This document shows, in pieces, positions 21,265-33,309 of a stretch of DNA of 64,000 nt. The stretch comes from an uncultured Acidobacteriota bacterium (lineage in GTDB: Bacteria > Acidobacteriota > Vicinamibacteria > Vicinamibacterales > 2-12-FULL-66-21): NCBI GenBank assembly GCA_963755695.1, contig CAVWLB010000008.1, positions 798,109 through 862,108 on the forward strand. Reading direction: 5' to 3'. The position numbers and the translations under genes are program-made. How positions within the stretch are numbered: the first letter of the stretch is position 1; every line of letters starts with the position of its first letter. The notes beneath the pieces are model-generated. The model was not told the DNA's origin, did no database searches, and was given only the letters and a program-made list of their open reading frames with translations.

Positions 21265-22328
21265 ATGACGTCACGTCAAATCAGCGAGCCCATAGACCTC
21301 GAATCCAATAAAGCCGGCCCCGACGATCCGCGCTATCTCACCGCAGTCGAGAAACGTTTCAACAAGCGATTCCGCGCGCGCCCGGACTACGTATGGGTCG
21401 TCAACTCGACCGATCAGGTCGTATCGGCAGTCGAGCGGTCGGTAAAGGAAGGCCGCCGGCTCGCCGTTACGAGTGGAGGCCATTGTCTCGAGGCCTTCGT
21501 GTCGGATCCCGATGTGCGGGTGAAACATCGATCCGGTGACGTTCGCGTGGCTGCTCAGGAACCACGGAATCTGGTGCGAGCGAAACAGCAATGCCGATTC
21601 CGCGTTTGCCTCGCTGTGGACGCTCTTCGAGATCCACCGTAGGCAGTTCGGCGCGATCATCACTCGCGGCCTGAGTACAGGCCGGCGCCGTCGCCGAACG
21701 ACAGATCGATGACTACTTGGGGGCGCTCACCGAGGGAGTGAGCGCACCGAACAGCTGCGAGTTGGCGCGGATGTCCTGGCTCGAGTTTGCTCTCAACCCC
21801 TTCCCGGATCTGTTCGCTTCACCACCGGGCGGCGCAAGCGTGAAGGTCAAGGATGCGCTACTCAAGCAACGGTTCACGGACGGCCAGATTCGCGTGGCGT
21901 ACGATTACCTGACCCGCACCGACTACGACGCCATCGGTGGGATGTTGGGCATGGCGACCTACGGTGGACGAATCAATACCGTGGCGACCGATGCGACCGC
22001 CTCGGCGCAACGTGGTTCGATTCTCGACATCGCATGCACTACTGGCTGGATCGATCCTGGGGACGAGGAGAAGAACCTGAAATGGGTACGAGCGTTCTAT
22101 CGAGATCTGTTTGCAGACAGCGGCGGAGTCCCGGTGCCGGGCGAGGCATATGACGGGACATTCATCAATCATCCGGACGTCGACCTCGCCGATCCGGCGC
22201 TGAATACCTCAGGCGTGCCCTGGCAGGCGTTTTATTACCAGGCGAACTACTCGCGTCTTCAGGAAATCAAGGCGCGGTGGGATCCGCTGAACGTCTTTCG
22301 GCATTCGTTGTCCATTCGCGTCGAGTGA
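21265..22328 (+). pseudogene. BBE-like FAD-linked oxidase, internally deleted and frameshifted
   Basis: N-terminal VTSGGHCLEAF FAD-binding motif and C-terminal BBE domain (YYQANYSRLQEIKARWDPLNVFRHSLSI) are both present. About 150-200 aa of the middle are missing and the frame is broken. Confidence 0.6.
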
Positions 22329-22381
22329 CTGGATGGAGGGCGCCCGAGCGGCGGCGCTGAAGTTGCACAGCACCAGGCGCG

Positions 22382-23657
22382 ATGGTACGCCTGCGACGAC
22401 ATCACAAACTCGTCTTTTCGATCCTGATCGTGTGCGGCATCATCGCCGCGCTCCTGGCGATCGCGCAGGATCAGGAGACGCTCAAGATCGAGAGTGCCTA
22501 CACTGCGGAGGACCGGCGATTTCCCGCATATCTCGCGGCGCTTCTTGGCGCGGATGCCACCGGCGGGAACCAATACCAGGTCCTCACCAACGGCGACCAG
22601 ATCTTCCCGGCGATGCTCGAGGCGATCGACGGCGCAAAGCGGCGGATCAGCTTCGAGACCTACATCTACGACAAGGGGTCGGTCGGCGACCAGTTCACCG
22701 CCGCTCTCGAGGCCGCGGCGCAGCGCGGCGTGCAGGTCGATCTCGTCGTCGACGCGATGGGCTCGAACAAGGTGCCGTCCGAGACGGTCAAGCGTCTGCG
22801 CGATGCCGGCGCTCAAGTCGGCCAGTTCGGCAAGCCGAACTGGTACACGCTCGAAGAACTCAACTATCGCACGCACCGCAAGATCCTCGTCGTCGACGGC
22901 GCGGATCGGGTTCACCGGCGGCGTCGGCGTCGCCGATCACTGGCTCGGCCACGCGCAGGACCAGGAACACTGGCGCGACACGATGGTGCGCATCGACGGG
23001 CCGCTCGTGCGATTGATGGAGGGGGCGTTCTACGAGAACTTCGTCGAGACGCTCGGCCCGGCGACGGCGACGCTCGATCCGCCGGACGAATGGCAGCCCC
23101 CGACGCCTCGCGACAGCGCGTTCGTCCTGCGCAGCTCGCCGACCGGCGGCAGCAACGATCTGAAGCGGCTGTATCTGCTGGCGATTGGCGCGGCGCGGCG
23201 GACGCTCGACATCACCACGCCGTACTTCGTCACCGACGAATCGAGCGAGTGGTCGCTGAGGAGGCGGTGAAGCGCGGCGTCAAAATCCGCATCCTGGTCG
23301 AAGGGGACTATACCGACGCGAAGCCGGTCAAGTACGCCAGCCGCAGCACCTACGAGCAGCTGCTGGCGCGGGATCGAGATCTACGAGTACCAGCCGACGA
23401 TGATGCACACCAAGGCGATGGTGGTGGACGGCGTGTGGAGCATGTTCGGATCGGCGAACTTCGACAACCGATCGCTCGAGCTGAACGACGAGATGAACGT
23501 CGCGGTCAGCGATCGCGATCTCGCGCGCGCCTGCTCCAGGACTTCGAGCAGGATCTGAAGTCCGCGCAAGCGACTCGATCTCGACAGCTGGCGGCGGCGC
23601 TCGCTGCTCGAGAAGGCGCGCGAGCACTTCTGGAGCTACTTCGGCGAAATTTTCTAG
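22382..23657 (+). pseudogene. cls: Cardiolipin synthase/phospholipase-D family gene carrying at least 4 frame breaks
   Basis: N-terminal TM helices. HKD motif 1 is HRKILVVDG and HKD motif 2 is HTKAMVVDG. The protein can only be read by switching frame near 22895, 23240, 23370 and 23530. Confidence 0.7.
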
Positions 23658-23720
23658 AAGCCTCGCCCCTCGTCCCTCGCCGTTCGCCCCTCGCCCCTCG
23701 GATCAAGCGATAATCGTGAG

Positions 23721-31110: not shown

Positions 31111-31142
31111 TCGGTGAGCCCTTCCGGCATGGAGGCGGAACT

Positions 31143-32617
31143 ATGGGTCTTCAGACCATGAGCGTCGGATTCTGGGTCGTTGTCGGGCTGATGGTGCTGG
31201 CCGTGGCGCTGCTCGGATCGTTCCTCGCGTCGCTCTATCGGAAGGCCGGCCCGCACGAAGCGCTGATCGTCTACGGCTTCCGCGGCACGCGCATCGTGAA
31301 AGGGCACGGCACCGTGATCTTTCCGATGGTCGAGTCGTCGCCACGAGCTGTCGCTGGAGCTGATGTCGTTCGACGTCGCGCCCGAAGCAGGACCTCTACA
31401 CCAAGCAGGGCGTGGCGGTCACGGTCGAAGCGGTCGCGCAGATCAAGGTGAAGTCCGACATGCGAGTCGATCGAGACCGCGGCCGAGCAGTTCCTGACCA
31501 AGACGCCGGAGCAGCGCGAGGGCCTGATCCGGCTGGTGATGGAAGGCCACCTGCGCGGCATCATCGGCCAGCTCACGGTCGAGCAGATCGTGAAGGAGCC
31601 GGAGATGGTCGCCGACCGCATGCGCGCCACCTGCGCCGACGACATGAACAAGATGGGCCTCGAGGTGGTCTCGTTCACGATCAAGGAAGTCCGCGACAAG
31701 AACGAGTACATCGTCAACATGGGCCGGCCCGACGTGGCGCGCATCAAGCGCGACGCCGACGTCGCCGCGGCCGAGGCCGAGCGCGACACCGCGATCAAGC
31801 GCGCCGAGGCGACGCGCGAGTCGGCGATCGCCAAGGCGCAGGCCGACCAGGAGCGCGTGCTGGCCGAGACGCTGTCGCAGGCCAAGCAGGCCGAGGCGCA
31901 GCGCGACCTCGAGATCAAGAAGGCGAAGTACGTCGAGACCGTCAAGAAGCAGCAGGCGCAGGCCGACAAGGCCTACGAGATCCAGACCAACATCATGCAG
32001 CAGCAGGTCGTCGCCGAGGCGGTGCGCGTGCAGCAGGTCGAGCGCGAGCAGCAGATCAAGGTGCAGGAAGCGGAGATCCTGCGCCGCGAGAAGGAGCTGA
32101 TCGCGACCGTGCTGAAGCAGGCCGAGATCGAGCGCCAGCGCATCGCGATGCTGGCCGAGGCCGAGAAGCAGCCGGCTGTCGATCGAGGCCGAAGGCCAGC
32201 GCTGCCGCGATCCGCGCTGCAGGGCGAGGCGGAGGCCGACATCATCTTCAAGAAGGGCGACGCCGAAGCGCGGGCGATGAACGTGAAGGCCGAGGCGTTC
32301 CAGGAGTACAACCAGGCGGCGGTCATCGACAAGCTGCTCACGTCGCTGCCGGAGATCGTCGCGGGCGCTCGCCAGCCCGCTGACCAAGGTGGACAAGATC
32401 ACGATCGTGTCCACCGGCAACGGCGACATCGACCGGCATGCACAAGATCACCGGCGACATGACCGAAATCGCGGCGCAGGTGCCGGCGCTGTTCGAGGCG
32501 CTGTCGGGCATGCCGATGGCGGACCTGCTGTCGAAGGTGAGGAAGATCGGCGACAAGGCGCCCGCCCGGAGCGGCAGGAGCGGAGCGAGCGCGGTCGCGG
32601 AGCTGCCTGGCTCGAGC
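31143..32617 (+). pseudogene. Flotillin-like SPFH/band-7 protein (YqiK/FloA-like), frameshifted
   Basis: TM N-terminus. SPFH core (GLIRLVMEGHLRGIIGQLTVEQIVKEPEMVA...). A long Ala/Glu/Gln-rich coiled coil. Multiple frame switches. Confidence 0.7.
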
Positions 32618-32639
32618 GAGGACGTAAGACAGGAGTACC

Positions 32640-33309
32640 ATGGCAGTACTCGAACGCGTCGCCACGCTGGTCCGCGCGAACCTGAACGACCTGATCGATC
32701 GCGCGGAAGATCCGGAGAAGATGATCAAGCAGGTGATCCTCGACATGGAGAACCAGCTGCTGCAGGTGAAGACGCAGGTGGCGATCTCGATGGCCGACCA
32801 GCACCTGCTGCAGAAGAAGCAGAACGGAGCACGAGGACAAGGCGGCCGAGTGGATGCGCAAGGCGGAGCTGGCCGTCGACAAGCAGCAGGACGACCTCGC
32901 GCGCGCGGCGCTCGAGCGCTACCAGAGCTTCACCAAGCTGGCCGAGAGCTTACACGCAGCAGGTCGAGGACCAGAGGCAGCAGGTCGACACGCTGCGCAA
33001 GGCGCTCGCGCAGCTCGATCAGAAGCTGGGCGAGGCGCGGGCGAAGAGCGACCTGCTGCTCGCGCAGCATCGCCGGGCGCGCGCGCTCGAAAAGGCGAAC
33101 GACGCGCAGCTCGTCGTGGGCGGACGCGGCCCGGCCGCCGGCTTCGACCGGATGGAGCGGAAGGTCCAGCGCGCGAGGCCGTCAGCCAGGCCAAGTCCGA
33201 GCTGGTCGCCGACGATGTGGATCGCCGGTTCGAGGCGATGGAGAAGGACGACGAAGTGGGCCGTCTGCTCGACGCGCTCAAGGCTCGTCGCGGCGCCTCT
33301 CCGCAGTAG
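32640..33309 (+). pseudogene. pspA: PspA/IM30 (phage-shock protein A family), frameshifted
   Basis: MAVLERVATLVRANLNDLIDRAEDPEKMIKQVILDMENQLLQVK is the PspA N-terminus. The rest is recovered in 2 other frames. Confidence 0.7.

Follow-up and report, generated by a model that had tools for sequence, protein, structure and literature searches.

Genes and features of the block

The sequence analysed here, hereafter the window, is a 64,000-nucleotide (nt) stretch of contig CAVWLB010000008.1 (positions 798,109 to 862,108; assembly GCA_963755695.1) with a guanine-plus-cytosine (GC) content of about 64%. Between positions 21265 and 33309 of the window lies a block of ten plus-strand genes, among them gltX, which encodes glutamate-tRNA ligase. 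All ten genes are disrupted, nine of them by dense single-base insertions and deletions (indels), and we examined whether these lesions belong to the organism or to its assembly. The features of the block are as follows; L081 and L084 are contigs of the Joint Genome Institute (JGI) with the same gene order, and protein lengths, in amino acids (aa), are those obtained after the indels are corrected.

21265 to 22328, plus strand: remnant of an FAD-linked (BBE-type) oxidase, recognised by Pfam BBE; C-terminal 217 codons intact
22382 to 23657, plus strand: cls, PLD-family cardiolipin synthase; 425 codons, 91% identity to L081, no stops
23721 to 25184, plus strand: gltX, glutamate-tRNA ligase; 485 aa
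25487 to 25750, plus strand: KGG-repeat stress protein; 86 aa; 2–3 inserted bases (25664, 25722, 25728)
25921 to 26546, plus strand: HhH-GPD (AlkA-like) DNA glycosylase; 207 aa; 4–5 indels (25947, 26025, 26121, 26480 and, with doubt, 26177)
26561 to 29845, plus strand: PD40 beta-propeller plus amidohydrolase; about 1082 aa; 31 frame-breaking indels; Pfam domains read on the L084 orthologue
30032 to 30510, plus strand: 158-aa protein with a weak HTH_3/XRE match; 5 inserted bases
30511 to 31121, plus strand: NfeD-family membrane protein; 201 aa; 7 indels
31143 to 32590, plus strand: flotillin (Band_7/SPFH and Flot); 479 aa; 8 inserted bases
32640 to 33309, plus strand: PspA/IM30; 222 aa; 3 indels, of which the one at 33173 is the last of the block
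22900 to 33173, no strand: dense error tract with 74 window-specific frame-breaking indels
33409 to 33482, plus strand: tRNA-Gln (CTG), intact, followed by a clean right flank

The nine genes for which a full-length reference exists, from cls to the PspA gene, regain the length of their orthologues after correction, at 79–93% identity. The FAD oxidase stays truncated, having lost 467 nt by an internal deletion.

Number and positions of the frame breaks

Reference proteins were the intact orthologues from syntenic Vicinamibacterales contigs, with those of L084 as the main set, and the L084 proteins were aligned to the window by a protein-to-DNA dynamic-programming procedure that tolerates frameshifts. 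Together with per-gene DNA alignments, this procedure yields 70–76 frame-breaking indels across 21.5–33.2 kb. Against the L084 proteins, identity after correction is 79–90%, and 70 frameshifts are spread over the nine genes from cls to the PspA gene: 5 in cls, 5 in gltX, 2 in the KGG gene, 4 in the HhH-GPD gene, 31 in the PD40-amidohydrolase gene, 5 in the HTH protein gene, 7 in the NfeD gene, 8 in the flotillin gene and 3 in the PspA gene. The positions are nearly the same, within a few bases, when orthologues from L081, L083, L002 and L003 serve as references, and three reference orthologues give an equal number of breaks at near-identical positions in the PD40-amidohydrolase gene. As a control, the relatives' own DNA was put through the same alignment and gave 0–2 frameshifts per locus, even where the divergence was greater. 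The per-gene MAFFT alignments place 74 window-specific indels, with lengths that are not multiples of three, between 22900 and 33173.

In cls, the five frame-breaking indels lie at about 22900, 23259, 23368, 23526 and 23567. The gltX gene has a deletion at 24169 and insertions at about 24507–24515, 24746–24750, 24858–24862 and 25119–25133, together with a local +2/+1 pair at 24590–24606. Freed of its indels, gltX encodes 485 aa with the stop codon where it is expected, and the product matches 485-aa homologues at 91% identity over 100% of its length. The Pfam searches give the same picture, with consecutive parts of one profile falling in different frames across the genes of the block; positions 1–140 of the gltX catalytic domain, for example, lie in one frame and positions 137–260 in another.

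A codon-usage hidden Markov model (HMM, Viterbi decoding), which was trained on the genes of the relatives and counts same-strand frame switches without a nearby stop, resolved about 45 unexplained switches in 21.3–33.3 kb and about 8–10 in 39–63 kb, and none in 1–21 kb. A raw frame plot of the GC content at third codon positions was too noisy for counting breaks. The length of open reading frames (ORFs) can mislead here. The 916-aa ORF at 26562–29312 on the plus strand is an artificial composite: it runs through about 25 frameshifts of the PD40-amidohydrolase gene and stays open because the high GC content leaves the wrong frames open; ORF length is therefore no proof of intactness in such DNA.

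The original prediction had held that every gene of 21265–33309 is frame-broken and that the first 21 kb contains no evident breaks. The former statement is upheld by the frameshift-aware alignment with several reference orthologues, and the latter by the codon-usage HMM and complete Pfam architectures. Its count of about 25 breaks was too low by roughly three-fold, and its list of broken genes, correct in what it names, lacks the KGG stress-protein gene.

Nature of the indels

Single-base insertions dominate: 56 of the 74 events are +1 insertions and 15 are −1 deletions, the remainder being −2, +2 and +5, so that nearly every event is of 1 nt and the ratio of insertions to deletions is about 3.7:1. 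Within genes, no window-specific indel has a length divisible by three. The composition of the inserted bases (C 25, G 17, A 7, T 7) resembles that of the surrounding sequence, and 44 of the 56 inserted bases have no identical neighbour. The homopolymer context, which the original prediction had proposed to check, shows no association of the indels with homopolymers, as runs of at least three bases occur within 4 nt of 8% of the events and of 16% of random positions. The spacing of the indels (mean 141 nt, coefficient of variation 1.06) is roughly that of a Poisson process.

Two simple causes were considered and rejected. Programmed frameshifting or recoding does not account for 70 or more events that share no common motif and affect all genes, and GC content alone does not account for them either, since the equally GC-rich segments at 9–11 kb and 40.5–43 kb are intact.

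Conserved position of the block

The neighbourhood of gltX matches metagenome-assembled genomes (MAGs) of Vicinamibacterales (Acidobacteriota) and soil metagenome contigs. The 11.5-kb contig L084, with 82–83% nucleotide identity, carries cls, gltX and the genes for the KGG protein, HhH-GPD glycosylase, PD40-amidohydrolase, HTH protein, NfeD, flotillin and PspA, followed by tRNA-Gln, in the same order as the window and all intact. L081 keeps this order with intact genes at 88% identity and also holds the C-terminus of the FAD oxidase. Since both contigs retain the gene order with intact genes, comparison of the sequences shows that the block is no island: it occupies the usual, conserved site of these genes on the chromosome. 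A search of the window found neither direct nor inverted repeats at the block edges, a result that speaks against both a mobile element and the boundary of a duplication, and Rfam returned two tRNAs and nothing else in the window.

Among the more distant gltX contigs, L166 and L167 lose synteny outside the core. L166 appears frame-broken at 14343–16896, where the PD40-amidohydrolase is called as three genes; L165, a short contig described below, has two 1-nt deletions of its own (nt ~345 and ~1475), and the gltX of L010 (~10600–11300) is frameshifted several times. Public assemblies of related Acidobacteriota may commonly contain the same artefact.

Decay or sequence error

If the genes were decaying, substitutions should accompany the indels. 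The corrected frames, about 3,700 codons in all, contain zero in-frame stops. Under neutral decay with 76 lesions, substitution-to-indel ratios of 3, 5 or 10 would lead to 7, 12 or 25 stops, and the chance of zero stops is <1e-3 already at a ratio of 3. Conserved columns, defined by a conservation of at least 97%, tell the same story. At 215 such columns among 120 homologues, the GltX of the window has 0–1 private changes, the median of the other sequences being 1, and the single change sits within a locally out-of-frame stretch between two close indels. For the C-terminus of the FAD oxidase, 81 conserved columns show 0 private changes, and the C-terminal fragment of the L081 protein aligns to the window with 0 frameshifts and 85% identity. 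With L084 as the outgroup, a relative-rate test on 3,991 aligned sites assigns 162 private substitutions to the window and 216 to L081, so that substitutions are not in excess in the lineage of the window.

The question of paralogues was judged from the 64-kb window and from matches in a database of 5.8 billion proteins, which includes the gene calls of the source contig itself. A recent duplicate of gltX should have yielded a near-identical match. Since no near-identical intact GltX from an NCBI/ENA source is among the hits, the search argues against duplication. The best match of the corrected GltX, from JGI only, is 91% identical; a divergent second gltX would not be listed.

Edges of the block and the 467-nt gap

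The FAD oxidase differs from the other genes of the block. The original prediction was right that it is broken, but not by repeated frame switching: an internal deletion at 21523/21525 has removed 467 nt, and an extra A stands at 21679. L165, a JGI contig of 1.5 kb that is 94–98% identical to the window and covers 21229–22306, is the only near-identical public contig found. It lacks the inserted A and retains the missing 467 nt (its nt 297–763), which hold the rest of the FAD_binding_4 domain. L165 is an imperfect reference, as it carries two frameshifts itself. It matches the window at 94% identity over 21229–21523 and at 98% over 21525–22306, with mismatches at 17 of 296 positions left of the junction versus 14 of 782 right of it (Fisher p = 0.0015). 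Judging from this comparison, the junction could mark two haplotypes joined during assembly, a breakpoint of recombination or a genuine deletion.

After the inserted A at 21679 come 1.2 kb without lesions, made up of the final 650 nt of the FAD oxidase and the initial 520 nt of cls; the dense tract therefore begins at 22900. On the other side, the block had been thought to end exactly at the tRNA-Gln promoter; the last indel in fact lies at 33173, 236 nt upstream of tRNA-Gln. The tRNA gene is identical to the L084 copy over the 57 nt covered (L084 ends at window position 33465), and the DUF2252 gene to its right (33834–35255) is intact, matching Pfam positions 1–392 of 392.

Two intact FAD_binding_4 oxidases, one ALO-type and one BBE-type, lie elsewhere in the window (17831–19195, plus strand; 55573–56964, minus strand), and neither is similar enough to the broken gene to be a recent copy of it. 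The one at 55573–56964 was tried as a reference for the broken gene and rejected, since its divergence makes the alignment meaningless.

Origin of the indels

We favour consensus errors left in a long-read stretch with poor support or poor polishing over gene loss, and on the sequence comparisons we give this reading a probability of roughly 0.93. The directly observed lesions are indels alone, dominated by insertions and scattered in the manner described, and the frames that correction restores are full length, with no nonsense codons and no substitution excess; the artefact reading follows from this combination. The lesions in two essential genes, gltX within the block and rpsA further downstream, also count for an artefact. 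The original prediction had left two interpretations side by side, an error-prone assembly stretch and a decaying duplicated segment. All sequence-level tests agree with the former, and the same tests speak against the latter.

Under this reading, the block would be a conserved housekeeping neighbourhood whose assembly consensus holds about 75 random single-base indel errors, and in the organism itself these genes are most probably unbroken. The most likely cause would be a stretch of a long-read contig backed by very few noisy reads; alternatively, the stretch may have escaped polishing or may have been bridged by barely corrected long-read sequence. The ORF at 21771–22328 corresponds exactly to protein P0121 (185 aa, MSWLEFALNPFPDLFASPPGG...SLSIRVE), which lies on one NCBI/ENA contig of 1,915,832 nt from an uncultured soil acidobacterium. 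From a contig of this size we infer a long-read assembly, and the reason for the drop in quality at this place is likewise deduced.

Pseudogenes produced by indel errors in long-read assemblies were reportedly described by Watson and Warr in 2019 (Nat Biotechnol). The block resembles such artefacts of Nanopore and PacBio continuous-long-read assemblies in that single-base indels fragment conserved genes, essential ones included, reference-guided correction restores the frames and the density of errors varies along the contig. It differs from them in being insertion-biased and independent of homopolymers, and in concentrating about 7 indels per kb in one block of ~10 kb beside 21 kb with none. 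Long-read bridges and gap fills in hybrid assemblies offer a further parallel, since there too a clean segment abuts a high-indel block, and the ~10–12 kb of the block are about what one long read would cover. However, the intermediate error density past 39 kb is not predicted by such a two-state model. Frameshift pseudogenes in MAGs from low-coverage long reads are a documented artefact, which grows worse as coverage falls (PMC8103633, PMC12007338, PMC8574707), and the residual errors of polished PacBio and Nanopore sequence usually lie in homopolymers and, in high-GC genomes, are deletions of G or C (PMC8574707).

Several points weigh against an origin in sequence error. The artefact is deduced from the sequence alone. 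Insertions outside homopolymers dominate, unlike the usual residual errors of polished long reads; such insertions fit raw-type error at low depth better than a polished consensus. The pattern of lesions thus points to stochastic low-depth error and does not single out a platform. A local cause is needed for the abrupt change from the clean 21-kb left flank on the same contig. Finally, per-base error does not account for the 467-nt deletion in the FAD oxidase, which may be genuine.

That deletion is a lesion of the kind seen in real pseudogenes, and with ten of the ten genes disrupted it is the basis of the rival view that the block is a decaying redundant copy, which arose by a recent segmental duplication or transfer while intact copies persist elsewhere. 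Genuine pseudogene tracts, such as those of Mycobacterium leprae and of recent host-restricted pathogens, do share with the block a series of adjacent frameshifted genes and a deletion of this sort. Unlike them, the block is free of nonsense mutations and shows neither relaxed constraint nor a bias towards deletions; its small lesions are all of ±1 nt, and they strike essential single-copy genes within a conserved housekeeping neighbourhood. Deletional bias is the rule in bacterial pseudogenes, and an excess of insertions is the opposite; this bias is said to have been set out by Mira, Ochman and Moran in 2001. An insertion excess of 3.7 to 1 with almost all events of 1 nt, the lack of excess change both at conserved residues and along the lineage, the conserved syntenic position of the locus, the missing NCBI/ENA match to GltX and the lesion of the same type in rpsA, outside the block, together make real pseudogenisation very unlikely.

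The tight clustering of the events and the presence of indels without substitutions could also be explained by a recent localised burst of +1/−1 changes (an 'indel shower'), for example through error-prone repair synthesis over ~10 kb, before selection had acted. A cell without GluRS, however, could not found a population abundant enough for a 1.9-Mb contig, and the occurrence of the same type of error at low density over 39–64 kb fits sequence quality rather than one event. We know of no bacterial process with a signature of clustered indels free of substitutions, and we regard such a burst as scarcely credible. Put more broadly, the view that the indels are real, a tract of ~10 kb or a redundant second copy of it having been struck by a localised +1/−1 burst without substitutions through some unknown error-prone synthesis, would be judged from the sequence as highly improbable, a shade less so than the shower by itself.

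A variant of the artefact reading deserves more weight, although we consider it unlikely. In a mixture of strains, the assembler may have moved at ~21.5 kb to the path of a rarer strain supported by few reads, which would amount to a chimeric join. The shift of identity to L165 from 94% to 98% across the 467-nt junction would agree with such a join, as would the position of the junction at the left end of the disturbed region. The dense errors, though, begin at 22.9 kb, 1.4 kb past the junction; N-terminal regions can simply vary more, and the comparison relies on one short contig, itself with two frameshifts.

Consequences for annotation

If residual consensus error is the source of the indels, as we favour, the block has little biological significance: its genes are of ordinary kinds, the organism almost certainly has them intact, and the broken block is not a real biological feature. 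Annotation of the contig will give about ten false pseudogenes or fragmented genes, gltX and rpsA among them, and completeness and metabolic inferences for the MAG will therefore be biased. In DNA of 65–70% GC, wrong frames stay open, and long ORFs can hide frameshifts. The tests used here to tell artefact from decay (absence of stops, private changes at conserved columns, relative rate, ratio of insertions to deletions and homopolymer context) require no reads and can be reused.

Flanks and remaining window

A metagenome scan with the left-flank gene at 20617–21189 returned 80 loci, none of which is syntenic past that gene. Since no syntenic loci were available for the left flank, Pfam architectures and the codon HMM were used as the control instead. 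The flanking ORFs have complete Pfam architectures (DUF2252; kinase and TPR; HTH, AAA and TPR; Mo-oxidoreductase). Exact-protein look-ups of the flank ORFs 33834–35255 and 19213–20358 gave no record.

The region of 39–64 kb contains about ten frame breaks at a low density of about 0.3 per kb. Isolated frame switches without a stop lie at ~39903 in an unknown gene, ~46305 in a methyltransferase gene and ~48585 in a beta-lactamase-family gene, and further ones at ~60000–60260, in the N-terminus of a SARP/BTAD-AAA-TPR regulator, and at 61227–61934, in an MFS transporter gene. The rpsA gene (62580–64000, plus strand; four S1 domains), which is cut off by the right end of the window, carries one +1 insertion at ~62690, a lesion of the same type as those in the block. 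The sparse breaks that had been noted beyond 43 kb, with one in rpsA, are thus confirmed, but those at 43.6–45 kb belong to insertion-sequence remnants and not to rpsA. These remnants are IS21-family fragments (43600–45050, plus strand), namely IstB and the Mu-transposase-like C-terminus of IstA, and their coding sequence is itself spread across several frames.

The IS21 fragments and a sulfatase-family gene lie within ~6.6 kb bounded by an inverted repeat of 45 nt with 82% complementarity (40321–40365 and 46973–47017). In the left part of the window, a direct repeat of 77 nt with 82% identity (12429–12505 and 14008–14084) lies on both sides of an ankyrin-repeat gene (12554–13861). The 2.4-kb segment at 35281–37638, with a lowered GC content of about 60%, has hardly any coding signal in the codon model, and its sole recognisable ORF, at 35508–35888 on the minus strand, is DUF4440/SnoaL-like.

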